A stretch of DNA of 28,370 bases from Pseudanabaenales cyanobacterium (GTDB lineage: Bacteria; Cyanobacteriota; Cyanobacteriia; Phormidesmidales; Phormidesmidaceae): positions 1 through 28,370 of the forward strand of contig JAKSDM010001206.1 of NCBI GenBank assembly GCA_022360135.1. The letters are read 5' to 3'. A model generated the notes under the pieces. That model ran no database searches. It worked only from the letters and a program-made list of their open reading frames with translations, and was not told the DNA's origin. Position numbers and translations under genes: made by a program. Shown piece by piece: positions 1-17,376 of the stretch. Numbering within the stretch: position 1 is the first letter of the stretch; every line of letters starts with the position of its first letter.

Positions 1-148
1 TCAATTCTTTTCGCTGACTGACCTGCCCGGTTTTGATCCACCAAAGCATTAGCAGTCTTTCTTTTTGAGTCCCACTCTTAGCTTGCTTGAGACTTTTCTC
101 CAGGTAGTCAGCCGTTTCGGTAATATCGAGGATAAAGGGACATGCCAT
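1..148 (-). CDS. Probable IS630-family transposase, N-terminal fragment (runs off window start; not in ORF track)
   Basis: Manual translation of minus strand from ATG at 148: MACPFILDITETADYLEKSLKQAKSGTQKERLLMLWWIKTGQVSQRKEL (49 aa, open to window edge). Resembles the N-terminus of cyanobacterial IS630-type HTH transposases (...KERL.ML(W/Y)W.K.GQV...). Confidence 0.65.
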   Translation of the reverse strand, partial: MACPFILDITETADYLEKSLKQAKSGTQKERLLMLWWIKTGQVSQRKEL

Positions 149-210
149 ATACACACCAATCTTGGTAGAAGCACCTTCAATTATGCTCTACTTCATTTCA
201 GATTGGTATA
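1..210 (-). mobile_element. Probable left end of IS630-family insertion sequence
   Basis: Minus strand reads TATACCAATCTGAAATGAAG from 210, about 60 nt upstream of the transposase-like ATG. A TA-initiated end fits IS630/Tc1 elements. The partner end lies outside the window, so the inverted repeat cannot be confirmed. Confidence 0.5.
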
Positions 211-380
211 ACAACCGCACTGCAATGGAACAGTCTGCTAAGGGCGAGTGATTTGCAAAAGGTATCTGCGTCCCCGCCTAAGCCGCCCTATTGGACTGGG
301 GTTGAAAACTACCGTTGTCAGAATACCACTTTAGTCGGATACATGATTAAATCCTCGCTCCTTACAATGGACCTGCCAAC

Positions 381-2093
381 ATGTTGGGGCTAAGTGCAAT
401 GACCAACGTTCAAATGGAGCCACTACCCATCAAAACCTCCATTGCAAGGCGAGTGTTACTGATTTATCCCATCTTTCCGCCGTCGTTTTGGTCCTTTGAA
501 AATGTCTTAGCTCTGGTGGGCAAAAAAGCCTTACTGCCACCTTTGAATCTGATTACTGTGGCTGCTATTTTACCCCAAACTTGGGATTTCAAGCTGGTCG
601 ATCGCAACGTTAGAGACATCACGCAAGCCGAGTGGGCCTGGGCAGAATGTGTGATTATTTCTGGCATGATTGTGCAAAAGTCAGACCTCTTGGCCTGTGT
701 ACAAGAGGCAAAATGCCGAGGTAAGTTAGTAGCGGTGGGCGGTCCTTACGCCACAGCGCTCCCCCAAGAGGTGCAGGATGCTGGCGCGGACTATTTGGTT
801 TTAGATGAAGGGGAACTCACTCTCCCCCTATGGGTAAAGGCCTTAGAATGCGGTGAAACTCAGGGAATATTTCGAGCCGCCGAAAAACCGGATGTGACCC
901 AAACCCCGATTCCACGATTTGACCTCCTAGACCTCAAAGTCTACGATACTATGTCGGTTCAGTTCTCCAGAGGTTGCCCGTTCCAATGTGAATTTTGCGA
1001 TATTATCGTGCTCTATGGTCGCAAACCCCGCACCAAAACCCCTGCTCAACTCCTGGCTGAACTGGATACGCTCTACGATTTGGGATGGCGGGGCGCTGTG
1101 TTTATGGTGGACGATAACTTTATTGGCAATAAGCGCAATGTCAAATGTCTGCTCCGAGAACTCAAGATCTGGCAAGCTAAACGTGAACGCCCTTTTGGGT
1201 TTATCACAGAAGCCTCAGTCGATTTAGCCGATGATCCAGAGTTAATGGACTTGATGGCGGAGTGCAAATTCTACTGGGTATTTTTAGGGCTTGAAACCCC
1301 TGATGAATCGAGTCTCAGCCTCACCAAGAAGTTTCAAAATACGCGCAGTTCGATGCTGGAAGCCATTGATAAGATTTACCAGAAAGGAATCAGGGTGATA
1401 GCGGGGTTGATTATTGGCTTTGATGGGGAAAAAGCGGGTGCAGGTCAACGGATTGTCAATTTCATTGAAAAAGCTGCGATTCCAGCGACCACATTTAGTA
1501 TGTTACAGGCCCTGCCCGATACCGCGCTCTGGCATCGGCTAAAAGCAGAGGGGCGTTTGCTCAACCATACAGGGAATATCAACCAAACCACATTAATGAA
1601 CTTTGTCCCCACTCGTCCAATCGAAGAGATTGTCCAGGAATATTTAGACGCGATCGATCAGCTCTTTGACCCAGAACGTTACCTGGAGCGAGTTTATAAT
1701 CAATTTATGCGTCTGGCTCCCCTACCCCATCATCTCAATCCACCCAGGAAAAACCATCGGAGTATTAAGCCTAGGAAAAAAGAGCCAAATTTTAAGCCAT
1801 CCACATGGGTGCGATTGCGAGCATTTTTAACCGTTTGTTGGCGGCAGGGGATTAAGCAGCGTAGCCGCCGAAAATTTTGGGGTTACTTATTCTCAATTTG
1901 GAAATATAAACCCTACCGCCTGTCTTCCTATATCTCCACCTGCGCCTATAGTGAACATTTCCTGACATACTATCCAATCGTACGATCTCAACTGATGGAT
2001 CAGTTAACTGAGCATCTACAAGCCACCGCTCACTTGCAAACCAATCAACTTGAAGTAAATCCCAAGGAAACTAAACTCTCAGCAGCCGGATAA
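381..2093 (+). CDS. B12-binding radical SAM protein (class B methyltransferase-like; HpnP-related/DUF4070-type paralog)
   Basis: CxxxCxxC (CPFQCEFC), N-terminal cobalamin-binding region (PPLNL...VAVGGPY), MVDDNFIGN. Start uncertain (ATG 381, 399 or 414). Confidence 0.85.
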   Translation: MLGLSAMTNVQMEPLPIKTSIARRVLLIYPIFPPSFWSFENVLALVGKKALLPPLNLITVAAILPQTWDFKLVDRNVRDITQAEWAWAECVIISGMIVQKSDLLACVQEAKCRGKLVAVGGPYATALPQEVQDAGADYLVLDEGELTLPLWVKALECGETQGIFRAAEKPDVTQTPIPRFDLLDLKVYDTMSVQFSRGCPFQCEFCDIIVLYGRKPRTKTPAQLLAELDTLYDLGWRGAVFMVDDNFIGNKRNVKCLLRELKIWQAKRERPFGFITEASVDLADDPELMDLMAECKFYWVFLGLETPDESSLSLTKKFQNTRSSMLEAIDKIYQKGIRVIAGLIIGFDGEKAGAGQRIVNFIEKAAIPATTFSMLQALPDTALWHRLKAEGRLLNHTGNINQTTLMNFVPTRPIEEIVQEYLDAIDQLFDPERYLERVYNQFMRLAPLPHHLNPPRKNHRSIKPRKKEPNFKPSTWVRLRAFLTVCWRQGIKQRSRRKFWGYLFSIWKYKPYRLSSYISTCAYSEHFLTYYPIVRSQLMDQLTEHLQATAHLQTNQLEVNPKETKLSAAG

Positions 2094-2174
2094 ACTGTTG
2101 GGAAAAGGGAAAAAGGAAGGCTATGTTTTTTGATCCGACTTGCTTAATCAAACACAGGGTAGGAGTATTCTAGA

Positions 2175-3977
2175 TTGCAAAATCCACAAGCCAATTCATG
2201 GTCAACGTTGGTCGAATTATTGCAATTTAGAACAGTGGCTCAACCGCACCAAGATTTATACATTTTTCTCAAAGATGACAATGTTGAATCGGGTTGTTTA
2301 ACCTATGCAACTTTGGATCGAAAAGCGCGGGCGATCGCCGCTTACCTGCAAACCCAGTCTGTCCAACCAGGTCAACGGGTTTTATTGAGCTATCCCCTGA
2401 CAGAAGGGCTAGCCTTTATTGCCGCTTTCTTCGGTTGTCTCTACGCCGGGGCTGTTGTAGTCACGGCATGGCCTCCCATGAACCAATCCCTATCCTCTGA
2501 GTTGCAGTATAAAGCAGCTGACGCAGCGGTCAGTTTGGGGCTGACCGCTCAAACCTTGCTGGCGCAAATTCAAACTACTTTTGGCCAGAATCCAGAACTC
2601 GCCCATATTCCCTGGTTAGCCACAGAGCCCTTTTCCTTAGACCTGGCAGAGGACTGGCAAGCCCCTGAGTTAGCCTCCCATACCCTAGCGTACCTTCAAT
2701 ACACTGCAGGCTCAACAGGTATTCCGAAGGGGGCCATGATTAGCCACAAAAACTTGCTCCACAATTCAGCCGTCATTGCCCATTGCTTTGGCGCAACGCG
2801 TGACGATCGAGGAGTGATTTGGTTACCGCTATATCACGATATGGGATTAATTGGCGGGATTCTCCAGCCGCTCTATGCCAGCTTTCCTGTCTGTTTAATG
2901 TCGCCGCTATCATTCATGCGTCGGCCACTACGGTGGTTACAAGCAATCTCCCATTACCGGGCGACGATCAGTGGCGGGCCGAATTTCGCCTATGAGTTGT
3001 GTATAGATAAAATCAAATCGGCTGACTTAAAAAGGCTGGATTTGAGTACCTGGACGATCGCCTTCAATGGTGCAGAACCCGTTCAAGCAAGAACTCTAGA
3101 ACGGTTTGCAGCGGCTTTTGCTCCTTACCAATTTCGGCCTGAGGCTTTTTGCCCTTGTTATGGCATGGCTGAAACCACGGTGATGGCGGCCAGTAATCTG
3201 AAATTACAAACTCCTCAAGTTCTCTACTTAGATCCAGATGCGTTGGCTCAAAATCAAGTGCGCCAGATCAAGGAGGAACAAGTAGCGGGTCTCAGGGTCG
3301 AAAATCGCTCCGCAGTGAGTTGTGGTCAGGCTGTTTTAGGTCAACAAATTCGCATTGTTGATCCAGAAACTTGCCAACCTTGCTCAGTAGATCAAGTGGG
3401 AGAAATTTGGATCGCAGGGGATAGCGTCGCCCAAGGTTACTGGAATAATGCTGAAGCAACGGCGGCCACATTTCAGGGCTGTTTAGCGAACACGGGTGAA
3501 GGTACCTTTTTACGGACGGGTGACATAGGCTTTTTAGCCTCTGAACAGCTTTACATCACAGGAAGGCTTAAGGAAGTCATCATTATCTGGGGACGTAACC
3601 TTTACCCCCAGCATTTAGAACAGGCGATCGCCCAAAGCCATCCAGCGTTTGCTTTTAGCCAAGGGGCCGCCTTTAGTCTGGAGCAAGACGGTCAGGAGCA
3701 ATTAGTAATTGTGCAGGAAATCTCGCGGCGATCGCAGCATAGCGCCCCCCTCACTGACTTAGTTGCAATCATACAAACCACGATCAGCCAACAATTTCTG
3801 GTGGAACCCCAACAGATTGCGCTGGTAAAATCTGGCTCAATTCCAAAAACCCCAACAGGGAAGGTACAACGCATCCACTGTCGCCAACAATGGCGAAATG
3901 GACAATTGCCTGTGATTCACACCTGGCGGCAAACAATTAGTGGTGGAAACATTGATTGGGAGGCAGCATTGGCATGA
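2175..3977 (+). CDS. Fatty acyl-AMP ligase (FAAL), stand-alone
   Basis: YLQYTAGSTGIPKG, WLPLYHDMGLIGG, SGGPNFAY, FNGAEPV, CYGMAE, RTGD, GRNLYPQ, PKTPTGKVQR; FAAL-type insertion near QVLYLDPDAL. TTG start with AGGAG at 2161-2165. Confidence 0.9.
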   Translation: MQNPQANSWSTLVELLQFRTVAQPHQDLYIFLKDDNVESGCLTYATLDRKARAIAAYLQTQSVQPGQRVLLSYPLTEGLAFIAAFFGCLYAGAVVVTAWPPMNQSLSSELQYKAADAAVSLGLTAQTLLAQIQTTFGQNPELAHIPWLATEPFSLDLAEDWQAPELASHTLAYLQYTAGSTGIPKGAMISHKNLLHNSAVIAHCFGATRDDRGVIWLPLYHDMGLIGGILQPLYASFPVCLMSPLSFMRRPLRWLQAISHYRATISGGPNFAYELCIDKIKSADLKRLDLSTWTIAFNGAEPVQARTLERFAAAFAPYQFRPEAFCPCYGMAETTVMAASNLKLQTPQVLYLDPDALAQNQVRQIKEEQVAGLRVENRSAVSCGQAVLGQQIRIVDPETCQPCSVDQVGEIWIAGDSVAQGYWNNAEATAATFQGCLANTGEGTFLRTGDIGFLASEQLYITGRLKEVIIIWGRNLYPQHLEQAIAQSHPAFAFSQGAAFSLEQDGQEQLVIVQEISRRSQHSAPLTDLVAIIQTTISQQFLVEPQQIALVKSGSIPKTPTGKVQRIHCRQQWRNGQLPVIHTWRQTISGGNIDWEAALA

Positions 3978-4112
3978 TTGCTTGATTACAGTCTACGTTG
4001 TTCTGCCTGGATGTATTGTGGATATTTCAAAGCACTGATTAAATTTTATGTCAACAAATTAAAACTGTATAGATATCTTATTACTGGGTAGTAGAGCGCA
4101 TCCGAAAAGCTC

Positions 4113-4670
4113 TTATTTTACCCCTAATCTTTTACGTAACCAGGTTGATCCCATGAATAGAAGCGGTGTCATCCAAAGACCATTGAGTATTAAATGAAGT
4201 GGAAGTCTGAAGTAGACGTATAGCGTTAGCAAAACACCATAGGGTGAATCCATATGGTCAATCCAATAAAAAACAGGATTGCTTTCATCCCCAGGTGAGA
4301 TCTTAAGACGGCGTTTAATAAACGAGTTAGGTAGTTCAGATAGGTTAAAAATAAAACCAATGAGTAAGCCATAGAGAATTCCATTAAAGCTACTTAGAAG
4401 AATAATGTTTTTAAGGTTAAATTTTAGACCAATTTCCAACATCTGGAATATCCAAACACTGACCAAATGAGTTAGAGGTAAACTTACCAGACCCCGCCAT
4501 TTTTTGTTGACCCCAAATAGTCCTACATGGATGGGATAGCTGAGCCTGTTAAATAGGGCTGTCTTCCACAAAAGAGCTTCAAAGATACTGGCCAGTAAAA
4601 GAGGAAGTCCTAGCCACACTAGACTTAAAAAGTCATTCTTATATAGATCAAGTGGACTCATTATACTCAT
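4113..4670 (-). CDS. CDP-archaeol synthase (CarS)-like membrane cytidylyltransferase
   Basis: Small hydrophobic protein with ELPNSFIKRRLKISPG...IDHMDS, matching the CarS/CTP_transf_1-type SFIKRRL...G...D-Q/H-x-D signature. Confidence 0.75.
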   Translation of the reverse strand: MSIMSPLDLYKNDFLSLVWLGLPLLLASIFEALLWKTALFNRLSYPIHVGLFGVNKKWRGLVSLPLTHLVSVWIFQMLEIGLKFNLKNIILLSSFNGILYGLLIGFIFNLSELPNSFIKRRLKISPGDESNPVFYWIDHMDSPYGVLLTLYVYFRLPLHLILNGLWMTPLLFMGSTWLRKRLGVK

Positions 4671-4712
4671 GATTTAGATCTTTTTATAACTGCTAAAAGT
4701 TGAAACAATGAT

Positions 4713-5750
4713 ATGCTGCTCAAATCGAAACAATCCAATACCATCGTGACTGATTCTCAAATGAGTGAGTCACGTCTTATGATTGCTCTGATTAACCCTA
4801 AAAGTGGCCAAGGTAAAGCCAGACGAGATTTGAATGTTGTTTTACCCATTTTTGAGAAGAGTAACATCCATCTGCGCGTTGCTGAAATTCAGGGTTCCCA
4901 AATTGTTTGTCAGGGGGTTCGACAATCCTTTCTGAACTTTTTCCAGTCATTAGATCTGGCTACAATTCATGGCATTATTGTGGGCGGAGGAGACGGAACA
5001 GTTCACTCAACAGTAAATGCCTTGATGAGTCGAGCAGATTGGACACAGGCGATTAAAATTCCTATTGGTTTTTTACCCAGCGGCACCGATAATGGTTTGT
5101 GTAAGACGGTTCTAGAACTTTCAGGAGAACCCTATAGTTTGAAGCATGCGGCCCTTCTCATTGCTCAAGGGCGGTTGCGATCGCTTGATATATTCAAAAT
5201 CCATCAGGAGAAACGTACGTTCTACGGCGTACATTCTCTGGCTTGGGGCTTAGTCAGCGACATTGACATCGAATCCAACCACCTCAGATTTCTGGGGCCG
5301 TTCAAAGAATGGATTTATGGATTGGCCTATGTTTTAAGACGTAGATTTTATGCGGGTACGTTACTGTTTGACCCTCAGTTTTCGCTGCAGGCTAAGTCAC
5401 CCATCTTGAGCAACAAACAAACAGATACATTTATTGGCATCTGGGCAGTTAATGTTCCCTGGGCAGGACGAGACCGCCTTTCTACTCCATTCGCCAAACT
5501 CGATGATGGTTTGATCGATTTACTCGTTCTGCGCCAAGGCATTTCAAGAAGGCATCTTTTAGAGCTTTTTATTAAAACAGAAGATGGTTCTCATATTCAT
5601 TGTCCAAAGCTTGAATACTATAAAACCCAAGCTTTAGCATTAAACCCTATCAGCATACCTGGCACTATCGCTATTGATGGTGAAGCGGTTGATTATGGCC
5701 CTATCAGCATTGAGGTTTTACAGAAACTCTGCACCATTTTTTGCCGTTAA
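4713..5750 (+). CDS. Diacylglycerol-kinase-superfamily lipid kinase with eukaryotic sphingosine-kinase-type motifs
   Basis: LINPKSGQGKA (C1), GGGDGTVHSTVNALMSRADW (C2), LPSGTDNGL (C3), SLAWGLVSDIDIESNHLRFLG (C4), DDGLIDL and IAIDGE (C5). Start may be ATG 4761. Confidence 0.85.
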   Translation: MLLKSKQSNTIVTDSQMSESRLMIALINPKSGQGKARRDLNVVLPIFEKSNIHLRVAEIQGSQIVCQGVRQSFLNFFQSLDLATIHGIIVGGGDGTVHSTVNALMSRADWTQAIKIPIGFLPSGTDNGLCKTVLELSGEPYSLKHAALLIAQGRLRSLDIFKIHQEKRTFYGVHSLAWGLVSDIDIESNHLRFLGPFKEWIYGLAYVLRRRFYAGTLLFDPQFSLQAKSPILSNKQTDTFIGIWAVNVPWAGRDRLSTPFAKLDDGLIDLLVLRQGISRRHLLELFIKTEDGSHIHCPKLEYYKTQALALNPISIPGTIAIDGEAVDYGPISIEVLQKLCTIFCR

Positions 5751-5751
5751 T

Positions 5752-6414
5752 TTACTGTTTTACAGTGTCGGTAAAAAGCTGACGCTGTTGTAAATCGATA
5801 GCCGCGATACAAACAGCAGATGCATATAGTTGAATAACATTAGTGATTTGTTTAAGTAGATAGATGGGAAAAATGCTCCATAGCAAGATCTGTCCGGTAT
5901 GGATTAAATCAAGCGGCAGATTAGGCGCGTAATAGTTTAAATACAGCAGTATATAGAACAGCTCATTGCCAAAAATTAAGGCGTCCATAAATCGTTTGTC
6001 GCCGTAATAAAGGTTGAGGAGCCGGTTTTTAGACCAGCGTTTGGTATTTTTATGGTTATGTTCCGCTTGTATAGAGGTTGCCTGTAAAAGATAGTAGTGA
6101 CTGCTGACATCTAGCGCTATGAGCAGAATGAAAATAAGTAGGTATTCTGGATAGAGTTGGGCAAGGATGAAACATAAACCTGTTGTTGCAGCTCGATCAG
6201 TCACCATATCAAGGGTAGCTCCAAACTGGGTTCTCTGATTAAGTCGTTTTGCTGCTTGACCATCGAGTTCATCGAGTAAGAAGGCCATAAGATAAAAAAT
6301 CAAACACCATAACCCATGTCCAAATGTATGAGAAATAAAGCTAATTGCATAAAGAACAACTCTTAAATAGCCAATGATATTGGGTAGCAATAGAAAAATA
6401 TTATTGGACTTCAT
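5752..6414 (-). CDS. CDP-alcohol phosphatidyltransferase, eukaryotic phosphatidylinositol synthase (PIS/CDIPT)-like
   Basis: CDP-alcohol motif DELDGQAAKRLNQRTQFGATLDMVTD, plus PIS-type segments NIFLLLPNIIGYLR, LDVSSHY, HK...N.LL..YY and GNELFYILLYL. Confidence 0.85.
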   Translation of the reverse strand: MKSNNIFLLLPNIIGYLRVVLYAISFISHTFGHGLWCLIFYLMAFLLDELDGQAAKRLNQRTQFGATLDMVTDRAATTGLCFILAQLYPEYLLIFILLIALDVSSHYYLLQATSIQAEHNHKNTKRWSKNRLLNLYYGDKRFMDALIFGNELFYILLYLNYYAPNLPLDLIHTGQILLWSIFPIYLLKQITNVIQLYASAVCIAAIDLQQRQLFTDTVKQ

Positions 6415-6526
6415 ACTCTATATTGTGGATTTGGATAAAGATTGCGACCAGCTTTGATCTTTAGTTACTTAAAGCCATTTTTTTTCTACGGTTACCTAGT
6501 TATTTCTTTCGTAAACCAGTAGGTCT

Positions 6527-7813
6527 TCATAGCCTTATTAAATCATGCGATCGCTGACAAACTGTCTCAAAGAGTTTCTCATACTCGCGTGTAATTTTGA
6601 CGGCATCAAAATCCTGGGCTCTGATTAACGCATTGCGGGCAAGTCTCGCCGCTTGATCAGGATTAGAAATCAGCTGATGAATGGCCCCTGCCAATTTCTC
6701 TGGGCTGCGGATCGGGACTAATAATCCTATTTGATCATCCTCAATGATTTCCTTAGGTCCATAGTCACAGTCTGTGGCAATGACAGGCGTCTGGCAGGCC
6801 ATTGCTTCAACCACAACATGTGGAAAGCCTTCCCATAAGGATGACAGGACAAAAGCCTGAGCTGCCGTCATATATATCCATGGATTCTCAACAAAGCCAG
6901 CTAACTTAACGTATTCCTGAAGCTTTAAAGTTTGGATTTGTACTTCTAAAGTATCTCGGTAATTGCCTTCCCCTAAAATTAGCAGCTTTAAATCCCTGAG
7001 ATGATACTGATGATGACAAAGGTATAAGGCTTGGATCAGATATTCAAATCCTTTTTGTGGGTATAACCGCCCAACAGCCACAATATAACGATCATCGGAG
7101 ACTTGCAGATTGGGTTCAGGCTTATATTTAGAGGATTGAACAGCCTGCTGAATCTGTACAAGATTGGTGGGATTATAAATATAGGTGATCTTCCCTGGAT
7201 TAATTTTATATACTTCTGAAACTTCTCTCGAAATACCCTTAGAAACTGTCAGGATTTTATCTGCTTGACTGTAACTATTCTGAATAATTCTGAATATCAA
7301 CATTTTCAGTATTCGATTCTTGGTAATACTTTTGAGATTAGTTGGAAAGCTATTTCCTTCACGCGCAATCCATTGGACTTTTCGGCTTCCTTGCTGACCT
7401 AAGGCAAAATTTGTCAGAATATTTAAACCTGTCATACTGGTCATGACGATGTCTGGCTGAATTGCCCTGACTAAAGCTTGAATTTGGTAAATTGAGGCTG
7501 GAGTTCGTAACAATCTCGGCAAGAGGCTTTTCAGACTGAAAGAATGAATTGTACTAGGCAAGGCTAAAACATATTGTAACCAGTCAGGTAATTTAGCCGT
7601 TCTGATATCTGCTACAGTCACCAAGTTGAGATATTCGCCAGTTTGGGATAAAAGACCAAGATAAGGGATAAAGCGATCGCGATCGATATACTCTAATAGG
7701 TCAACAATAGTACGCTCAGCTCCCCCACCTGATAAATCTGGCAGGATAAACAGGACTGAAATTTTCTTGGCGTCAGCTAAAGTTTGTTTCTTCACCACTT
7801 TATTGTTATCCAT
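6527..7813 (-). CDS. Glycosyltransferase family 4 (GT-B fold)
   Basis: PDLSGGGAER N-terminal motif, AVGRLYPQKG, FVLSSLWEGFPHVVVEAMAC (Ex7E). Start reassigned to ATG 7813, which overlaps the upstream stop (ATGGATAA); ORF track starts at 7870. Confidence 0.9.
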   Translation of the reverse strand: MDNNKVVKKQTLADAKKISVLFILPDLSGGGAERTIVDLLEYIDRDRFIPYLGLLSQTGEYLNLVTVADIRTAKLPDWLQYVLALPSTIHSFSLKSLLPRLLRTPASIYQIQALVRAIQPDIVMTSMTGLNILTNFALGQQGSRKVQWIAREGNSFPTNLKSITKNRILKMLIFRIIQNSYSQADKILTVSKGISREVSEVYKINPGKITYIYNPTNLVQIQQAVQSSKYKPEPNLQVSDDRYIVAVGRLYPQKGFEYLIQALYLCHHQYHLRDLKLLILGEGNYRDTLEVQIQTLKLQEYVKLAGFVENPWIYMTAAQAFVLSSLWEGFPHVVVEAMACQTPVIATDCDYGPKEIIEDDQIGLLVPIRSPEKLAGAIHQLISNPDQAARLARNALIRAQDFDAVKITREYEKLFETVCQRSHDLIRL

Positions 7814-8633
7814 ATTTCTCATAGCCAAAGAACTCCAGAGCAGGACTTGCTTCACGATTAAATTCATCAATCATTTCATCTGATAGTCTATCTATCTGCC
7901 TTTGATTCACATTTGGCTCTAGTATCTGATTTATGCTCTCCCTATCAAACCAATACTTCCGCCGCTCTTTTCCGAAAATAACTCTGTGTTCCCCTTGTTC
8001 AGTAATTACCTTTTTTGATTTAAATCGAAGCTTTTCTAGTTGGCGAGGACAAACATCTAAGAAGGTAGATAAATCCTCGATAACCTCGAAAGGGTTTTGA
8101 AGAATGTCCTCAAATTTGATCATTTTGAATCTGAGAATAACATCAGCATATCTTTTCATCTCTTCTGAAATCTGATAATACAATTGACCTACTCTGGCTG
8201 CAGTTCTCCCTCTTCTGAGATATCCATCGACTAATGCATAGCCATTTCGAGTAAGTGCTATGAAATACAAATCCGGATACACTTTGAGTAAGAGATCGGT
8301 GAGAAAAATATCTCTATTTACAGATTTGAGGCAGAGTGCTGTATTTGCAATCTGTTCGTGGGTATAGAGTTCTCCCTCAGCAATGAATCTGTCATCAGGA
8401 TGTTTAAGACTCAGTAATTTAAACCTAAACAATTGATTGTCTATGATTCGCTGGTAATCAATGATTTGTTCAGCAAGCAAGCGACAAAACCATAGCGCCC
8501 AAGACCTATAGAATAGTTCTCCAGTCTCGTATATTGGTGAGCAAATTTCAGGATGTGATTGCAATAAATTCCATGCAATATTTGTGCCTCCTCTTGCAAA
8601 ACCACTTATGACGATGACCTTGGTATTCAGCAC
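7806..8633 (-). CDS. Sulfotransferase-family protein (divergent)
   Basis: N-terminal GFARGGTNIAWNLLQSHPEI resembles the 5'-PSB loop (GxxRSGT..L..LL..HP); FIALTRN and IKFEDILQNP match later sulfotransferase segments. GTG start with GGAGGA 9 nt upstream. Confidence 0.7.
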   Translation of the reverse strand: MLNTKVIVISGFARGGTNIAWNLLQSHPEICSPIYETGELFYRSWALWFCRLLAEQIIDYQRIIDNQLFRFKLLSLKHPDDRFIAEGELYTHEQIANTALCLKSVNRDIFLTDLLLKVYPDLYFIALTRNGYALVDGYLRRGRTAARVGQLYYQISEEMKRYADVILRFKMIKFEDILQNPFEVIEDLSTFLDVCPRQLEKLRFKSKKVITEQGEHRVIFGKERRKYWFDRESINQILEPNVNQRQIDRLSDEMIDEFNREASPALEFFGYEKYG

Positions 8634-8956
8634 AGTCGTTATTCCTCCATCAACCGGCCTTGAGGTCAGCGGTGTGAGACAGCGTGAGATTGCTTTCCAA
8701 CGGAGTCAGACACTTTGCTTACACGTCTACTATTCTCAAACCCATGTTAGCCTGGTTACCGCCTAAACCATCAAGAAACTGGCAACTCAGATTTAATCCT
8801 TCGCCATGGATTAAGTGACTTAGGAGACTCAATGGTATCATTGCTGAAGCTGAAGTTAAATAGTGCAACCTGTCGGGAATACTAAGGGCCAGGTATCTGC
8901 AACATAGCTATCCCCTCTCACCTAGTTTCAACTCTTAGATAAGTGCAAGCGGTGAT

Positions 8957-10129
8957 ATGAGCGTGCGACTATTTTCCAGAATCCCCTTAGCATGGCTACA
9001 ACTAACCAGAAATAAGGTCCGTCTCTTAGTCGCTTTGATGGGGATTACCTTTGCAGTTGTGCTCATTTTCATTCAACTTGCCTTTTTGGACTCCCTATAT
9101 GAGAGTCAGACAGCCTTACACAGAAGTCTCAAGGCTGACCTGGTATTGATTAATCCTGAAATGAAGACGTTAGCAAGTAAAAGAAATTTTTCTCGTCAAC
9201 ATTTATATCGCGCTTTAAATTTTGACCAGGTAGCATCGGTTAACTATCTCTATCATGGTCAACAGACCTTTAAATACAAGGGCAGTGCTGGTGGTAAAGG
9301 AATCATTATTGTGGGAGTTAATCCAGAAGCACCACCCTTTGAAATCCCTAATTTTGATCAGCTGGCGCCTCAGCTTAGAACGACAGGTACAGTTTTATTT
9401 GATCAGAATTCTGATCTTAAGGAATATGGCAACATTGTCGAAGATTTGCAATCCGGTAAGCCGATAACTGCAGAGGTCGGAGATCGAAAAGTTTGGATTG
9501 GTGGAGCCGTTGACTTTGCAGGCGCTTCATTTGCAGACGATGGAAACTTGATTGCCAGCAGCGCAACTTTTTTGCAAATTATACCTCATCGTAATGCAGA
9601 TGATATAACCATTGGTTTGATCACGCTAAAACCGGATGTTGACAAACAAAAATTTCTGAATGGAATGGCGGCTCAGTTACCGGAAAATGTTCAAGTAATG
9701 ACGCTTCAAGACTTTATCGATCTTGAAAAACATTACTGGTCTACGAGTGCGCCAATTGGATTCGTTTTTGGTATGGGTGTCCTCGTCGGTTTTCTGGTGG
9801 GGGTAATCATTGTTTATCAAATTCTTTACAACGAAGTTTCTGACCATTTGCCAGATTATGCAGTCCTGAAAGCAAGAGGCTATAAGCATCGTTACTTTTT
9901 AGGGATTCTTTTCCAGGAAGCTTTACTTCTAGCGATCCTGGGTTATATTCCTGGATTCGCCATCTCTTTAGGACTTTATGATGTGACTAAAGACGCCACC
10001 GCTCTCCCCATTCATATGACGTTTCAAAGAGCATCACTGGTGCTTTTACTCACCATTATGATGTGCTTCATGTCCGGCGCTATTAGTATGCGTAAATTGC
10101 GGGAGGCAGATCCAGCAGAACTTTTCTAA
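8957..10129 (+). CDS. devC: DevC-family ABC exporter permease (FtsX-like)
   Basis: RIPLAWLQL...RLLVAL.GI.FAVVLIF.QL, IGFVFGMG, YQILYNEVSDHLPDYAVLKARGY, LREADPAELF. Confidence 0.9.
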   Translation: MSVRLFSRIPLAWLQLTRNKVRLLVALMGITFAVVLIFIQLAFLDSLYESQTALHRSLKADLVLINPEMKTLASKRNFSRQHLYRALNFDQVASVNYLYHGQQTFKYKGSAGGKGIIIVGVNPEAPPFEIPNFDQLAPQLRTTGTVLFDQNSDLKEYGNIVEDLQSGKPITAEVGDRKVWIGGAVDFAGASFADDGNLIASSATFLQIIPHRNADDITIGLITLKPDVDKQKFLNGMAAQLPENVQVMTLQDFIDLEKHYWSTSAPIGFVFGMGVLVGFLVGVIIVYQILYNEVSDHLPDYAVLKARGYKHRYFLGILFQEALLLAILGYIPGFAISLGLYDVTKDATALPIHMTFQRASLVLLLTIMMCFMSGAISMRKLREADPAELF

Positions 10130-10140
10130 ATTTATTTTTT

Positions 10141-10273
10141 GTCACTTGTCACTTGTCACTTGTCACTTGTCACTTGTCACTTGTCACTTGTCACTTGTCA
10201 CTTGTCACTTGTCACTTGTTACTTGTTACTTGTTATCTGACCAATGACCAATGACCAATGACTCATGACTTAT
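10141..10273 (+). repeat. STRR-type heptamer array, bipartite
   Basis: 19 in-phase heptamers: 11x GTCACTT, 2x GTTACTT, GTTATCT, 3x GACCAAT, GACTCAT, GACTTAT. GACCAAT is a rotation of the reverse complement of STRR2 TTGGTCA. Confidence 0.95.
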
Positions 10274-10334
10274 GTCCCTGCTAGTTCGATAACGATCTAA
10301 GTTAATACCTTCTTTGAGCACACTTCATAATACT

Positions 10335-11876
10335 ATGACGGCTCAATCTATTGTTTCAGTTCAGAATCTAAATCACTTTTTTGGAGAAAATACACTCCGA
10401 AAACAAGTTTTATTCGATGTCAATCTTGAGATTCGCCCTAAAGAATTTGTCATCCTGACTGGGCCTTCCGGTTCGGGTAAAAGTACCTTGTTGAGCCTGA
10501 TTGGTTGCTTGCGCTCAGTTCAAACCGGAAGTCTTAAGGTCTTGGGTCAAGAGCTTAATGGGGCTAATAATAGCCAGTTAATCCAGGTCCGTCGTCACTT
10601 TGGCTTTATTACCCAATCCAGTAACCTACTTCATTTTCTGACGGCCCAGCAAAATGTACAGATGTCGCTAGAATTACATCCGGAACTTTCGGGGCAAGAT
10701 AGGCGTACAAAGGCAAAAGCCATTTTGGAAGCAGTTGGATTGGGCGATCGCATTGCCTACTATCCTGATAGCCTATCAGGTGGACAGCGCCAAAGGGTGG
10801 CGATCGCCAGCGCCCTAGTCACCAATCCCAAATTGATGCTGGCCGATGAACCCACCGCTGCTTTAGATCGAAAGTCAGGCCGGAACGTGGTCGCCTTGAT
10901 GCATCGATTGGCAAAGGAGCAGGGAAGCGCTGTCTTGATGGTTACCCACGATAATCGCATCCTTGATCTCGCCGATCGGATCATCAACGTTGAAGACGGC
11001 AAGCTGGGATTAGCCGTTAGTCAAGAACTCTCTATTGCATTACCAGGCTTTAACGCCGCCCTGCTTGAGAAAAGCGATACAAAACCGACCGTCCTCACCT
11101 ATGAAGCTGGCGAGATTATCGTGCGACAAGGTGAAACCGCTACTAAGTTCTATGTCATTCTCGAAGGTGAGGTGGAGATTCTTCAAGAAACCCCTGATCA
11201 ACCCGCCAAACTTCTAAGACGGATGGGGCGGGGAGAATATTTTGGTGAAATTGGTTTGCTGCAAGGAGGTGAACGCACAGCCACAGTTCGCGTCGCCAAA
11301 GATTCAGAAGTCAAAGTTATGGTGATTGAGGAAACGCTTTTTCGACTTCTGATCGCCGATTCTGACCTCACCAATACCGATGTGGCTCGCCGCCTGCATC
11401 AGCGCATCATGACCAGTCACCTGGCGATCGCCTTGCCGAACCTGAGCACAGCTCGCATCACCGAGATTTTAGCTGCGGTGGAGGTGGTTCGATACGGGCC
11501 AAATTCCAATATTGTGCAACAAGGTGAGTCCGCCGATCGGTTTTACTTGATTTCTAAGGGCCAGGTCGCCGTAATTAACCATCAGGACGATGGCCAGGAA
11601 GCCACTCTCCGCACAATGCAAGCGGGTGAATACTTTGGTGAGACCGAGCTAATGAACAGACAAGACTATGGCTTTACGATTCGAGTGCTTCCTGAAGCCA
11701 GTGTTGAAGTCATGGTGTTAGACCGGACAACCTTCTGTAGCCTGATCGTTGAGTCCAATGCCAGCCAAGACAAAGTCGCCACAGTCTTGCGTAACCGCCT
11801 CATCGGCAATACCGAATATCCCTCTGAATCTATCTCCCTCAATCAAAACGCCCTTAAATCACGTTCCTCTCCCTAA
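10335..11876 (+). CDS. devA: DevA-family ABC ATPase fused to two C-terminal cNMP-binding domains
   Basis: Walker A GPSGSGKS, LSGGQRQRV, Walker B LMLADEPT, MVTHD; then GEYFGEIGLLQGGERTATVR and GEYFGETELMNRQDYGFTIR. ATG 10335 preferred over TTG 10314. Confidence 0.9.
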   Translation: MTAQSIVSVQNLNHFFGENTLRKQVLFDVNLEIRPKEFVILTGPSGSGKSTLLSLIGCLRSVQTGSLKVLGQELNGANNSQLIQVRRHFGFITQSSNLLHFLTAQQNVQMSLELHPELSGQDRRTKAKAILEAVGLGDRIAYYPDSLSGGQRQRVAIASALVTNPKLMLADEPTAALDRKSGRNVVALMHRLAKEQGSAVLMVTHDNRILDLADRIINVEDGKLGLAVSQELSIALPGFNAALLEKSDTKPTVLTYEAGEIIVRQGETATKFYVILEGEVEILQETPDQPAKLLRRMGRGEYFGEIGLLQGGERTATVRVAKDSEVKVMVIEETLFRLLIADSDLTNTDVARRLHQRIMTSHLAIALPNLSTARITEILAAVEVVRYGPNSNIVQQGESADRFYLISKGQVAVINHQDDGQEATLRTMQAGEYFGETELMNRQDYGFTIRVLPEASVEVMVLDRTTFCSLIVESNASQDKVATVLRNRLIGNTEYPSESISLNQNALKSRSSP

Positions 11877-11989
11877 ATTTGGGATGTTGGCTGCGAGATT
11901 GGGAATTCTGTAATTTAACATTACCTATTCAACTCAACTACGTTTCCCCTATTGAGCATCGCCGCCTTACAGCCTCGGAGTGAGGATGT

Positions 11990-13225
11990 ATGACGAATAC
12001 CTTGGACATTCAGTGTGTCATCGCTAAGACAATTGTTGATATGGAAATCAGACAATCTCGATTCAAATCCAAAACATGGATGACTATCCTGCTCCTGGCG
12101 GCTGGTGTCCTGACTGCGAATACGCTTTTGCCCACGGGTTTCTTCAAGGTTCGGGAAACTCAACGGAATGTTGTTTCGGAGGTTTCTGCTAGCGAGCCTA
12201 CCCTGACCACGGTAACGGCGCTAGGACGATTAGAACCTCAAGGAGAAATCACTCGTCTATCTGCATCTAGCTCTAATCAGCGTTTGGCTCAAGTGTTGGT
12301 GGGTGAAGGGGATATCGTTCAAGCTGGGCAAGCGATTGCTGTTCTCGACAATATCGATATTCGGAAAGCGGCTCTAGAGGAGGCGCAAGCAAAAGTAAAA
12401 GCTGCTCACGCCCATCTGACTCAGGTCAGCGCCGGGGCCAAGATGGGCGCCATTAATGCTCAACAAAGCAAAATAGTCATGTTAGAGGCTCAATTGGTTG
12501 GGGATATCGAGGCTCAGAAAGCGACTATTGCTCGTCTAGAGGCAGAAGTGCGCAATGCTGAAGTAGACTATCAACGCCATCAGAATCTTTATGATTCAGG
12601 GGCGATTTCAGCCTCTCTGTTTGACACCAAGCGCACCCAAATGGAAACCTTGCGGGAACAGCTTCGAGAAGCAACCGTGACCTTAGAACGAACTGTTAAC
12701 ACGGGTCAAGCCCAAGTTCAAGCTGAAAAAGAAACTCTACAGAGCATTGCTGAAGTTCGCTCAGTTGACATAGCCGAAGCCCAAGCCCAAGTGGATGAAG
12801 CATTGGCGTTAGTGAGCAAAGCAGAGGCAGACTTGGAACTTGCCTATGTGCGATCGCCTGTGGATGGACAAATTTTGAACCTTCACGCCAAAGCGGGTGA
12901 AATTGTGGGCGGCCAGGGCTTTGCTGACATCGGTCAAACTCAACAGATGTATGTCGTGGCTGAAATCTACGAAACCGATATTCGCCATGTGCAGATTGGC
13001 CAAACAGCTGCCATTATTAGTGAATACGGTGGGTTTACGGGCGAACTCAGGGGGGTTGTGAACCAAATTGGCCTGCAAATTGACAAACCTGGCATTTCTA
13101 ATGATGATCCAGCTGCTAAGGCGGATGTCAGGGTGGTGGAAGTCAAAATTCGCCTCAATTCAGAAGACAGTGAGCGAGTCAGACATCTCAATAACCTACA
13201 AGTTCGGGCATCCATTGAAATCTGA
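11990..13225 (+). CDS. devB: DevB-family HlyD-type membrane fusion protein
   Basis: VTALGRLEPQGE, long coiled coil, VRSPVDGQIL, QMYVVAEIYETDI, RVVEVKIRL...NNLQV. GAGGA upstream of ATG 11990 (alternative start 12041). Confidence 0.9.
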   Translation: MTNTLDIQCVIAKTIVDMEIRQSRFKSKTWMTILLLAAGVLTANTLLPTGFFKVRETQRNVVSEVSASEPTLTTVTALGRLEPQGEITRLSASSSNQRLAQVLVGEGDIVQAGQAIAVLDNIDIRKAALEEAQAKVKAAHAHLTQVSAGAKMGAINAQQSKIVMLEAQLVGDIEAQKATIARLEAEVRNAEVDYQRHQNLYDSGAISASLFDTKRTQMETLREQLREATVTLERTVNTGQAQVQAEKETLQSIAEVRSVDIAEAQAQVDEALALVSKAEADLELAYVRSPVDGQILNLHAKAGEIVGGQGFADIGQTQQMYVVAEIYETDIRHVQIGQTAAIISEYGGFTGELRGVVNQIGLQIDKPGISNDDPAAKADVRVVEVKIRLNSEDSERVRHLNNLQVRASIEI

Positions 13226-13246
13226 ATAAAATTCCCAGGGCAAGGA

Positions 13247-13358
13247 TCCAGAATTCAGAATCCAGAATTTAGCTGTCACTTGTCACCTGTCACTTGTCAC
13301 CTGCCACTTGTCACTTGTCACTTGTCACTTGACCAATGACCAATGATCAATGACCAAA
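13247..13358 (+). repeat. STRR-type heptamer array, bipartite, preceded by a third heptamer
   Basis: 3x TYCAGAA (13247-13267), then 8 GTCACTT-type units (13275-13330, variants GTCACCT/GCCACTT) and 4 GACCAAT-type units (13331-13358). Confidence 0.95.
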
Positions 13359-13521
13359 GGATTCTTGCTCAGCCAGCAAGTTCTGGCGTAAGTGGATGCC
13401 CAATAAACGTTTTGGAGGCGAATTCGTGAAGAGTTGATAAACACCAAAATTCTGGCCGCAGGATTCCAGGCGCTATGGGCAATCTAGAACTAATCAAGGC
13501 GCTAGTCTTAGTCAACTCGGA

Positions 13522-14298
13522 GTGATATCGATGCCAACCAGAAAAGTAACGGCCGCCGTCAAAACATTCAGTATGTTGCTCTCATCGGCGACTTTATTGG
13601 TGACTAGTTTGATCTCCCTGCAACCCAGTTATAGTATTGAGTTTCCCTCTACTGGCAACCGAGGCGGTCCCGCTAGAACAACCGGCGGCGGTGTCCGAGG
13701 CGGCGACTGCAGGGATGGCGCGTCCCAAGCGCATCAAGTATTTTCTCTAACTCCGTTAATGCCGTTGAACATAAGCGGCGAATATCAAAATACGTTCGTT
13801 GATGATTCTGTTGTGATGCTGTTCTATGTGCCAGATGGCGTCCGCAATAAGTATGCCGAAGTCTATGTCGAAGATCCCAACACAGGTGAAGTGGTCTATG
13901 AAAGCATTTTCTTCCTGGCCACGCCTCCGAGAATTATGCAGGTGAGTTTCCCAGCTTTTTCGGAGGAAACAGGCGAGACTCTAGAGATGGATAAAGATTA
14001 TCTCTGGGAATTCGCTATTATTTGTGACTTTCGCGATCGTGGCCTTGATATTTATACTTCAGGTTACACTCGACGGGTTGCCCCCCCATCTCAACTGCCC
14101 CCAACATTTGACCAACTGCAGAACTGGACAGTCGCCAGCGCTGATAGCTATGCCCAGGCTCTGATCTGGCAAGAATCTCTGCGGATTCTTGATCATGTGA
14201 AATGTGACTCTCAAGCCGAATGGACAGAGTTTTTAAACTCTGCAGGGCTGGATCAGGCAATCACGCAAGTCAGTCTTGAGCAGTGCCGTGCTGAGTAA
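13522..14298 (+). CDS. DUF928-domain protein (predicted secreted)
   Basis: Signal-peptide-like N-terminus, GGPARTTGGGVRGG motif, L.PLMP, Y.WEF.IICD..DR, YAQALIWQESL; sits directly before a CHASE2 gene, the usual context for DUF928. Confidence 0.75.
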   Translation: MISMPTRKVTAAVKTFSMLLSSATLLVTSLISLQPSYSIEFPSTGNRGGPARTTGGGVRGGDCRDGASQAHQVFSLTPLMPLNISGEYQNTFVDDSVVMLFYVPDGVRNKYAEVYVEDPNTGEVVYESIFFLATPPRIMQVSFPAFSEETGETLEMDKDYLWEFAIICDFRDRGLDIYTSGYTRRVAPPSQLPPTFDQLQNWTVASADSYAQALIWQESLRILDHVKCDSQAEWTEFLNSAGLDQAITQVSLEQCRAE

Positions 14299-14324
14299 AC
14301 CATAAGGGCATTGGACGAATTGCT

Positions 14325-16571: not shown

Positions 16572-16611
16572 CAGCGACAAAAAGTTAGATGACTGCTCTA
16601 GCAGGAAAAAC

Positions 16612-17376
16612 ATGAGGTTACTCTTTTTGGGTTCTGGTTCTGCTTTCACAGTGGGGGCCGACAATTTTCACTCCAACCTACTTCTGATCAGTGAGACGGG
16701 ACGGAAACTACTATTGGACTGCGGTTCCGATATCCGCTTCTCGCTTCATGAGGCTGATTTATGCCATCGTGACATTACAGATATCTATATTAGCCATCTC
16801 CATGCTGATCACGTTGGCGGTTTGGAGTATATGGGATTTAGGGCTCTATTTGATCCGGATTGTCAAAAATCCAATCTCTTTTTGAGTCAAGATCTGGCTG
16901 GAGAGCTTTGGGAAAAAACACTCTCCGGCGGTATGCGTTGTCTTGAGGGAGATATTGCAACCCTTGATACTTTCTTCACCGTTTATCCGATTAAGCCCAA
17001 GGGGCAGTTCCTATGGGAGGGGATTCAGTTCAACTTGGCGCCAGTTATCCATATCAACACCGGATATTTTGTCATGCCCAGTTATGGGCTATTTTTTGAG
17101 ATCGCAGGCGTCAAAATTTTTCTCTCAACCGATACCCAACTTTGCCTGGACGTAGTGGGATCCTATTACGAGCAAGCCGATGTCATCTTTCATGACTGTG
17201 AGACGTCCCAATTCCCCAGTCCTGTCCATGCTCACTATCACCAACTGGTTACCTTACCCGCGGCGATCAAGCAGAAAATGTGGCTCTACGGTTACCAGCC
17301 AGGTTCTCTACCTGACGCCAAACGGGACGGCTTCTGTGGATTTGTCAAACGCGGCCAAACTTTTGAGTTTCTTTAA
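16612..17376 (+). CDS. Metallo-beta-lactamase-fold hydrolase (possible cyclic-nucleotide phosphodiesterase)
   Basis: LLDCG, HLHADH (HxHxDH), STDT, IFHDCET, VHAHY. Overlaps the convergent ziaA stop by 4 nt (TTAA, 17373-17376). Confidence 0.8.
   Translation: MRLLFLGSGSAFTVGADNFHSNLLLISETGRKLLLDCGSDIRFSLHEADLCHRDITDIYISHLHADHVGGLEYMGFRALFDPDCQKSNLFLSQDLAGELWEKTLSGGMRCLEGDIATLDTFFTVYPIKPKGQFLWEGIQFNLAPVIHINTGYFVMPSYGLFFEIAGVKIFLSTDTQLCLDVVGSYYEQADVIFHDCETSQFPSPVHAHYHQLVTLPAAIKQKMWLYGYQPGSLPDAKRDGFCGFVKRGQTFEFL

Follow-up and report, generated by a model that had tools for sequence, protein, structure and literature searches.

A conserved cyanobacterial neighbourhood of kinase, CarS-like and phosphatidylinositol synthase-like genes, predicted to act in inositol-phosphate sphingolipid synthesis through a CDP-activated lipid

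To our knowledge, phosphatidylglycerol is taken to be the sole phospholipid of model cyanobacteria. In eukaryotes, phosphatidylinositol (PI) is made by a phosphatidylinositol synthase (PIS) that uses CDP-diacylglycerol (CDP-DAG). Inositol phosphoceramide (IPC) is made in eukaryotes by AUR1-type synthesis, and a PI-dependent route has been proposed for the PI-dihydroceramide pathways of Bacteroides, BT_1522-1526 (PMC9246714). Only two sphingolipids have ever been identified in cyanobacteria (PMC8895605); ceramide phosphoinositols (PI-Cer t18:0/16:0, t18:0/18:0 and t19:0/16:0) with inositol-phosphate fragment ions have been reported from liquid chromatography and high-resolution tandem mass spectrometry of Arthrospira platensis biomass, in a study of total lipid extracts that proposes no pathway (PMC11051859). 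Here we describe three adjacent genes, for a CarS-like CTP transferase, a sphingosine-kinase-like lipid kinase and a PIS homologue, in a Pseudanabaenales cyanobacterium. They lie on a contig of 28,370 bp (C1642), the whole of which was analysed and is referred to as the window; the host genome, which comes from a coral-reef metagenome, amounts to 7.7 Mb in 1,838 contigs and is fragmented but 90% complete. We propose, with a probability of roughly 0.6, that the three genes are the head-group half of a dispersed cyanobacterial inositol-phosphate sphingolipid pathway that would proceed through a CDP-activated lipid. The features concerned are as follows.

4113-4670, minus strand: CarS-like integral-membrane CTP transferase, 185 aa (PF01864), the proposed CDP-lipid synthase
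4671-4712: 42-bp spacer between the head-to-head CarS-like and kinase genes, read from the sequence
4713-5750, plus strand: sphingosine-kinase-like lipid kinase, 345 aa (DAGK_cat and YegS_C)
5752-6414, minus strand: homologue of eukaryote-type phosphatidylinositol synthase, 220 aa (CDP-OH_P_transf)

A sequence-only reading of this DNA had described the triad as contiguous genes for eukaryote-like enzymes. We found that the three open reading frames are present at the coordinates that it gave, each product scoring above its own Pfam gathering score, and that they are indeed contiguous, although the gene order had to be corrected to CarS-like (minus), kinase (plus) and PIS homologue (minus). The CarS-like and kinase genes are head-to-head with the 42-bp gap between them, and the kinase and PIS-like genes are tail-to-tail with a gap of 1 bp. 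Since the genes are oriented in this way, the triad is not co-transcribed, and an operon is ruled out by the alternating strands; it is a conserved neighbourhood instead. A scan for consensus promoters and terminators returned fewer sites than were found in shuffled sequences, and gave no convincing promoter in the spacer. The description as eukaryote-like held for two of the three enzymes, the kinase and the PIS homologue; the CarS-like protein is of archaeal type.

The kinase is made up of the catalytic domain DAGK_cat (PF00781, 75.1 bits) and the C-terminal beta-sandwich lipid-binding domain YegS_C (PF19279, 41.4 bits). Its earlier label as sphingosine-kinase-like was apt, in that human SphK1 ranks first among the solved structures (E 3.4e-30), followed by acylglycerol kinase (4e-16) and bacterial DgkB (3e-8). 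When aligned with 3vzb the kinase shows the motifs GGGDG and S-LAWG...SDID, and D94, S175 and D185 align with D81, S168 and D178 of SphK1 (the offset between the two numberings was counted by hand), the residues that serve SphK1 as catalytic base and sphingosine contacts. All three residues are invariant in eight family members, namely the window kinase and seven relatives, one of which is gammaproteobacterial. A conserved stretch of about 100 aa without Pfam match extends the N-terminus in most relatives of the kinase (examples are encoded at L034 8579-10009, L019 66-1337 and L030 8280-9791) and is missing from the window kinase and its closest relatives. By analogy with ceramide kinases, this extension might be a membrane- or lipid-targeting domain.

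The PIS homologue matches CDP-OH_P_transf with 58.2 bits. Measured against the CDP-alcohol phosphotransferase motif D-x2-D-G-x2-A-R-x8-G-x3-D-x3-D, it has D48, D51, G52, A55, K56, G65, D69 and D73, with lysine instead of arginine at position 56; the other positions are invariant or nearly so in 35 homologues. A sequence search of the PDB reached no eukaryotic PIS structure, and fold comparison was needed. When the AlphaFold2 model (pLDDT 91.6) was compared with Swiss-Prot structures, eukaryotic CDP-DAG-inositol 3-phosphatidyltransferases took all of the first nine places (TM-score 0.83-0.89, 32-43% identity), and the next matches, after a gap, are bacterial PgsA-type proteins with TM-scores of at most 0.65 and identities of at most 21%, which bears out the original PIS-like label. 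Likewise, an exhaustive search of 1.8 billion cluster representatives returned a single cyanobacterial cluster followed by the named PIS of yeasts, Naegleria, an amoebozoan, a scallop and a chytrid, the nearest non-cyanobacterial sequences being eukaryotic PIS of 36-43% identity. In a phylogenetic tree the cyanobacterial PIS-type proteins are monophyletic (support 99/95) and are placed among eukaryotic PIS, in a tree whose outgroup branch is very long and whose polytomous backbone gives no direction of transfer between eukaryotes and cyanobacteria. The protein falls far below the cut-offs of the phosphatidylinositol phosphate/archaetidylinositol phosphate (PIP/AIP) synthase equivalogs NF045883 and NF040950 (32.2 and 36.6 bits; cut-offs 170 and 180), and also below that of a further PIP synthase (PIPS)-type equivalog, NF052561.

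The CarS-like protein matches PF01864 with 33.9 bits (cut-off 22) over profile positions 43-171 of 175, and its family is marked by the invariant blocks NSF.KRR...G.E...D..DS. Searching the PDB with the sequence and with its profile gave nothing useful, the structure of ApCarS (5GUF) not being reached by the profile. The sole confident PDB match of the AlphaFold2 model (pLDDT 90.5) is this same 5GUF, with a probability of 1.0, TM-scores of 0.56/0.64 and 15% identity, and the model shows the five-helix CarS fold. Against the NCBIfam CDP-archaeol synthase equivalog NF003114, the protein scores 28 bits, below the cut-off of 148. A geranylgeranylglyceryl phosphate (GGGP) synthase (PcrB/GGGPS) was not matched in the 90% complete host genome, which argues that archaeol is not the substrate. 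We conclude from the Pfam match and the modelled fold that the protein belongs to the CarS family and, because the equivalog score is far too low and GGGP synthase was not found, that it is not a CDP-archaeol synthase. A separate CdsA is encoded on contig C1281, and pgsA and three inositol monophosphatase (IMPase)-family genes are also present, so that the CarS-like and PIS-like genes are extra to housekeeping phospholipid synthesis.

Synteny in other genomes had been set beforehand as a refuting test, and the triad was found to recur: the arrangement of PIS, kinase on the opposite strand and CarS is identical in the window, in Jaaginema PMC 1079/1080 and in a metagenome-assembled genome (MAG) of Leptolyngbyaceae. 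An alignment search with the CarS-like family, restricted to one genome per species, yielded 53 loci, all cyanobacterial. The head-to-head kinase/CarS pair occurs in at least 15 further loci, with very short spacers in Jaaginema, Oscillatoria PMC, Acaryochloris and Thiorhodovibrio, and in at least eight loci it adjoins genes for an alpha-oxoamine synthase (AOS), a ketoreductase (KR) and a desaturase. Three types of cluster were distinguished, in which acyl carrier protein (ACP), fatty acyl-AMP ligase (FAAL), inositol-3-phosphate synthase (MIPS), glycosyltransferase family 4 (GT4) and AIP synthase (AIPS)-like genes recur.

Type A, in Jaaginema, Oscillatoria PMC and SIO1A7, the Leptolyngbyaceae MAG and metagenomic contigs L085/L086: transferase, kinase and CarS beside KR, oxoamine synthase, ACP, desaturases, an acyl-CoA-dehydrogenase-like (ACAD) gene and FAAL, often also with MIPS and GT4
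Type B, in Acaryochloris marina MBIC11017 and other Acaryochloris, Lyngbya and Limnospira: AIPS/PIPS-like transferase with kinase and CarS
Type C, in about 25 Pleurocapsales genomes: MIPS, FAAL, GNAT or GT4, and CarS together, with kinase, PIS type and oxoamine synthase elsewhere in the genome

Among the type A clusters, those of Oscillatoria PMC 1068.18 and Jaaginema bring together MIPS, two FAAL genes, FAAL-ACP-AOS, KR, LicD, Stealth, GT4, CarS and kinase. In Jaaginema the same cluster additionally holds PIS; in Oscillatoria PMC 1068.18, where the kinase/CarS pair stands at the head, the PIS-like gene is cut at the end of another contig. The L086 cluster consists of MIPS, AOS, desaturase, KR, FAAL, CarS, kinase and GT4, and its 325-aa desaturase (5663-6640), which lies between AOS and KR, has a Lipid_DES (sphingolipid delta4-desaturase) N-terminal domain (26.9 bits, cut-off 23). 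The Oscillatoria SIO1A7 cluster contains a fatty-acid hydroxylase, FAAL, ACAD, desaturase, ACP, AOS, KR, CarS and kinase; here two PDDEXK_2/DUF4351 genes are inserted between transferase and kinase (L031 6106-8220), so the neighbourhood tolerates insertions without gene loss. In L085 (6160-7221) and L086 (2977-4038), the two closest relatives, a gene resembling KASIII or a type III polyketide synthase (PKS) directly precedes the oxoamine synthase, and its product may take over from a separate ACP loader by priming or elongating the acyl chain. Neither this gene nor the DES-like desaturase nor a 291-aa protein of L086 was found in the genome of the window.

The transferase of type B (for example at L017 11038-11709, L034 5508-6143 and L038 about 5000-5700) also replaces the PIS type in Limnospira/Arthrospira and Oscillatoria SIO1A7. 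It scores 121.6 bits on the AIPS model, below the cut-off of 180, and shares 33% identity across 43 residues with the window-type PIS, to which it is not orthologous. As two non-orthologous inositol-specific transferases pair with the same kinase/CarS, inositol as the acceptor is independently supported. Two side observations were made in these genomes: in Acaryochloris a 744-aa protein without Pfam match is encoded between the AIPS-like transferase and the kinase, and in Arthrospira platensis PCC 7345 the kinase/transferase pair is present twice with equal scores (G433:C13 1068-2665 and G433:C298 19751-21348), as is the CarS-like gene (L046 and L048), by duplication or assembly redundancy. 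The type C genomes had raised the objection that PIS stands alone in Pleurocapsa/Waterburya. This was ruled out, the Waterburya chromosome holding a MIPS-FAAL-GT4-CarS cluster some 3.8 Mb away.

The kinase and the CarS-like gene were found in exactly the same 4 of 400 cyanobacterial genomes, which belong to three genera; the PIS type is present in three of these carriers, and in the fourth an AIPS-like transferase lies beside the kinase. All sampled PIS carriers also hold kinase and CarS, and all four carriers have MIPS and an orthologue of the oxoamine synthase. Five further CarS carriers, including A. marina MBIC11017 and also A. platensis PCC 7345, which has the full gene set, likewise combine MIPS and the oxoamine-synthase orthologue with the kinase and a second CDP-alcohol transferase. 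The kinase/CarS pair was thus never seen in a genome without the AOS orthologue (nine of nine carriers tested), and the background frequency of MIPS was 3 in 300 sampled genomes, all three of them carriers. These counts are given without a statistic, related genomes not being independent.

The sequence-only reading had noted that genes for inositol phosphate synthesis and serine palmitoyltransferase (SPT) are absent from the window, and that the substrates may be made elsewhere or scavenged. An inositol-phosphate synthase and an SPT-like enzyme are in fact encoded side by side elsewhere in the same genome: contig C1805 carries, all on one strand, MIPS, a FAAL, an ACP-fused AOS, a KR of the short-chain dehydrogenase/reductase (SDR) family and a Polysacc_synt flippase. 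The best solved relatives of this oxoamine synthase are serine palmitoyltransferases (Sphingobacterium, 1.5e-69; human SPTLC2, 1.6e-63).

Taken together, these genes suggest the following pathway, the simplest chemistry in which each conserved member has a part. The FAAL of C1805 would load a fatty acid onto the ACP of the SPT-like oxoamine synthase, which would condense the acyl chain with an amino acid, and the SDR would reduce the 3-keto group to give a sphingoid base, while MIPS would make inositol phosphate. The SphK-like kinase would phosphorylate the C1 hydroxyl of the sphingoid base or of its N-acyl form, the CarS-like enzyme would transfer CMP from CTP onto the lipid 1-phosphate to give CDP-sphingoid or CDP-ceramide, and the PIS homologue would move the lipid-phosphate to myo-inositol with release of CMP. 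The acceptor is predicted to be free inositol, after an IMPase step, for the PIS type and inositol phosphate for the AIPS type. The three-step order of kinase, CDP activation and inositol transfer had been put forward at the outset, and it is supported by the synteny, by the exact co-occurrence of kinase and CarS and by the substrate genes in the genome. The non-standard backbone postulated with it also stands, its options narrowed from the original list, which had extended to alkylglycerol and long-chain alcohols, to a sphingoid base or ceramide, because the clusters of relatives hold an SPT-like synthase, a ketoreductase, a Lipid_DES-type desaturase and a fatty-acid hydroxylase. For the PIS homologue, the genomic setting favours a donor other than CDP-DAG.

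A potential explanation that would not need a sphingoid backbone is that diacylglycerol (DAG) is salvaged to ordinary PI, the kinase making phosphatidic acid (PA), the CarS-like enzyme CDP-DAG and the PIS homologue PI, which the GT4 would glycosylate as in PimA-type mannosides; the sphingoid-base genes would then serve another product. The 32-43% identity of the PIS homologue to CDP-DAG-using enzymes fits this, as do the membership of the kinase in the DAGK_cat superfamily and its match to acylglycerol kinase (E 4e-16), the existence of PI mannosyltransferases among GT4 enzymes, and an oxoamine-synthase clade that is wider than the module. However, PA is an ordinary intermediate and the genome already encodes a CdsA, which would make another way to CDP-DAG redundant; the kinase matches SphK1 far above DAG kinases and keeps the residues aligned to S168 and D178; and the kinase/CarS pair adjoins AOS, KR and desaturase genes in the loci counted above and, in every carrier tested, shares a genome with the AOS orthologue. 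We regard DAG salvage as unlikely.

We also considered that inositol phosphoceramide is formed via PI made from housekeeping CDP-DAG, with a further transferase moving the head group from PI to ceramide. The kinase would then serve turnover of the base 1-phosphate or signalling, and the CarS-like protein would be a CTP-dependent kinase or have another role. The CarS/CdsA clan does include CTP-dependent dolichol and phytol kinases, and transfer from PI is the sole experimentally established logic of IPC synthesis, being AUR1-type in eukaryotes and the basis of the Bacteroides proposal (PMC9246714). On the other hand, Pfam scans of the cluster genes brought up neither a PAP2 family member nor a HAD-type candidate like that of Bacteroides, a second kinase for one and the same lipid would be superfluous, and the strict head-to-head pairing and exact co-occurrence of kinase and CarS fit consecutive steps better. 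There is, in our judgement, little chance that this PI-dependent scheme is correct.

What we observed in favour of the CDP-activated sphingolipid pathway that we prefer is the assignment to families, the conservation of catalytic motifs, the synteny and the phyletic co-occurrence, beside the published ceramide phosphoinositols of a carrier genus; all substrates, the CDP-lipid itself, the stage at which N-acylation takes place, the use of a free base or of ceramide, and export are inferred. Several points weigh against it. Since the CarS clan includes CTP-dependent kinases, the CarS-like protein may catalyse something other than the predicted cytidylyl transfer, and eukaryotic PIS uses CDP-DAG and not the different CDP-lipid that is predicted here as the donor. 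The oxoamine synthase scores higher on the NCBIfam bioF model (360 bits) than on the SPT models (297-310 bits), all of these scores being below the cut-offs, so that its amino-acid substrate is not assignable, and its clade, found in 23 of 400 genomes, is broader than the module (4 of 400). The two halves of the pathway are on separate contigs, C1642 and C1805, whose adjacency the assembly graph (141-base overlaps) neither shows nor rules out: C1805 leads to the 3.8-kb contig C1338 and then ends, and nothing joins C1642 at its start. The base composition of the head-group block is foreign (see below), unlike that of the C1805 genes. Within the window we recognised no gene for a ceramide synthase. 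The Arthrospira lipids were annotated by database matching from non-axenic, commercial-type biomass, and neither CDP-ceramide nor CDP-sphingosine/CDP-sphingoid was found in the searchable literature.

One locus outside the cyanobacteria bears on the range of substrates. Thiorhodovibrio winogradskyi, a purple sulfur gammaproteobacterium, has a head-to-head kinase/CarS pair (CP121472.1, L030) whose CarS is 61% identical, adjoining a 2,532-aa type I PKS, an HlyD/FtsX/ABC exporter, a PlsC-type acyltransferase and a KR. Neither an oxoamine synthase nor a CDP-alcohol transferase is within view at this locus, and the kinase/CarS pair may for this reason also activate other lipid alcohols.

The triad is flanked in the window by the following genes.

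381-2093, plus strand: B12-binding radical SAM protein with DUF4070 (Pfam B12-binding, Radical_SAM and DUF4070)
2175-3977, plus strand: stand-alone FAAL with AMP-binding and DIP2-like domains (NCBIfam FAAL subfamilies, 375-413 bits)
6527-7813, minus strand: GT4 glycosyltransferase, encoded upstream of the PIS homologue in the same orientation (Glycos_transf_1, 144.7 bits)
7806-8633, minus strand: sulfotransferase (Sulfotransfer_3, PF13469, 38.8 bits), first of the sulfotransferase-GT4-PIS string
8957-13225, plus strand: ABC exporter of the DevC-DevA-DevB type, DevA being a fusion with cyclic-nucleotide (cNMP)-binding domains, divergent from the tailoring string

The radical SAM protein is a probable tailoring enzyme of the pathway, judging from its neighbours elsewhere: a homologue of 58-63% identity adjoins the CarS-like gene in six Acaryochloris loci (L034, L035, L040, L044, L045 and L084), and another lies 3 kb from it in one Waterburya locus. 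In the type B clusters of Acaryochloris, where the radical SAM gene comes after CarS, the identity to the window gene is 58-60%. A FAAL stands between MIPS and CarS in about 25 Pleurocapsales loci, and the module has a second FAAL beside it in the clusters of Jaaginema and Oscillatoria; the window FAAL and that of C1805 are both 44-48% identical to the Pleurocapsales protein, which singles out neither as the orthologue. The GT4 gene likely starts at the ATG at 7813, which overlaps the sulfotransferase stop by 8 nt, the longest open reading frame running from a TTG at 7870. Equivalent clusters of other lineages hold non-orthologous GT4 genes, and the sulfotransferase is confined to the lineage of the window, Jaaginema and Oscillatoria having Stealth and LicD instead. 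The GT4 and the sulfotransferase are predicted to decorate the head group, and DevBCA to export the product to the envelope. The exporter is above cut-off for DevC (TIGR01185, 415 bits) and DevA (TIGR02982, 347 bits), with a DevB of HlyD type, and similar exporters neighbour the Thiorhodovibrio kinase/CarS pair and, in L060, the CarS gene. After DevA, which has two cyclic-nucleotide-binding domains, come DUF928, a CHASE2-guanylate/adenylate cyclase and an Apyc1-like metallo-beta-lactamase (10314-17376); lipid export could be under cNMP control.

Six consecutive genes, from the CarS-like gene to DevC (4113-10129), have a GC content at third codon positions of 0.34-0.40, as against 0.44-0.56 in the rest of C1642 and in C1805. 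Their overall GC content is 0.375-0.433, and that of the flanks, DevA/DevB and the C1805 partner genes is 0.475-0.53. The block is a compositional island, and the head-group genes look horizontally acquired; oddly, its boundary falls within the devCAB string.

The island could instead belong to a secreted specialised metabolite, a lipo-amino-alcohol inositol-phosphate glycoside made by a horizontally moving natural-product cluster whose chemistry varies by lineage. Besides the island itself, the rarity (about 1% of genomes) and patchiness of the set, its lineage-dependent tailoring genes (sulfotransferase here, Stealth and LicD elsewhere) and the dedicated ABC exporter that adjoins it are of this kind, and FAAL/AOS and PKS-AOS combinations are common in cyanobacterial natural-product clusters, a PKS also lying beside the Thiorhodovibrio kinase/CarS pair. 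We nevertheless think it improbable that a secreted metabolite is the product, as all three head-group enzymes come from membrane-lipid enzyme families and the Arthrospira PI-Cer came from extracts of the total lipids of the biomass. It would differ from the sphingolipid pathway in physiological role and not in mechanism, and is compatible with CDP-activation chemistry.

When positions 1-13300 of the window were compared with coral metatranscriptome runs, short contigs of low depth, 96-99% identical, from X7, X8, X10 and X11 covered the FAAL, CarS-like, kinase, PIS-like, GT4, sulfotransferase and DevCAB genes. Cover was zero at 889-1776, within the radical SAM gene, and a single run reached 1-888. 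A close strain inhabits coral-associated communities and may be expressing the cluster there; DNA carry-over could also explain the contigs.

Going one step further than the assignment of the triad, we suggest tentatively, at somewhat less than even odds, that some cyanobacteria make inositol-phosphate sphingolipids, in this lineage glycosylated and sulfated and so resembling glycosyl inositol phosphorylceramides, with CDP-ceramide or CDP-sphingoid formed by a CarS enzyme of archaeal type and accepted by a bacterial member of the eukaryotic PIS family. The gene set recurs in a minority of cyanobacteria, and for the route that it most likely serves we found no description from any organism in the searchable literature; the titles and abstracts of papers that mention both CDP-archaeol synthase and cyanobacteria include none on this gene set. 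If the proposal is true, it would provide the first biosynthetic route for the ceramide phosphoinositols reported in spirulina and explain the source of inositol sphingolipids in cyanobacteria, among them Arthrospira/Limnospira as a food organism and Acaryochloris marina as a model. It would also add a third way of attaching inositol phosphate to ceramide, in which the lipid is activated by CTP, and set a clade of prokaryotes beside the root of the eukaryotic PI synthases. A single bacterial pathway would then combine a CarS of archaeal type with a PIS and a sphingosine kinase of eukaryotic type, which bears on the origin of eukaryotic lipid enzymes. The gene set is directly testable in cultured strains.

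On the basis of its gene content, we take the set to be a probable new variant of CDP-lipid head-group chemistry, with parts in common with four described systems. In the Caulobacter ceramide (di)phosphoglycerate pathway (PMC11324152, PMC13228409), compared here by description, the anionic head group likewise arises through a DAGK_cat-type kinase, the ceramide kinase CpgB, and CTP-dependent activation, and the acyl chain that the SPT takes is bound to ACP, onto which it is loaded by an acyl-ACP synthetase/FAAL-like enzyme. The head group and the enzymes described there differ from those of the window, CpgD being reported as a CTP:phosphoglycerate cytidylyltransferase, which activates the head group and not the lipid.

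The archaeal archaetidylinositol route shares the combination of a CarS-family CTP transferase with an inositol(-phosphate)-adding CDP-alcohol transferase, coupled to MIPS, and the type B clusters come closest to it through their AIPS-like transferase (121.6 bits). Unlike that route, the set described here has no GGGP synthase found with it, its CarS is far from the archaeal equivalog (28 against 148 bits) and 15% identical to ApCarS, a separate ATP-type kinase would supply the phosphate, the neighbours are predicted to make a sphingoid base and not archaeol, and the transferase of the window is of the eukaryotic PIS type. It is by this transferase, close in structure and sequence, and by the order of lipid phosphate, CDP-lipid and inositol lipid, that the set resembles eukaryotic CDS and PIS/CDIPT (EC 2.7.8.11). 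It departs from eukaryotic PI synthesis in having a donor synthase of CarS type and not CDS/CdsA, a SphK-like partner kinase, and co-occurrence with an SPT-like synthase and not with glycerolipid genes, in a host that has its own CdsA/PgsA. Finally, with AUR1-type IPC synthesis in fungi, plants and kinetoplastids and with Bacteroides it shares the predicted class of end-product, inositol phosphoceramide, and the clustering of MIPS with lipid genes; in those routes PI, or a proposed CDP-inositol, supplies the inositol phosphate, whereas here it is the lipid that is predicted to be CDP-activated.

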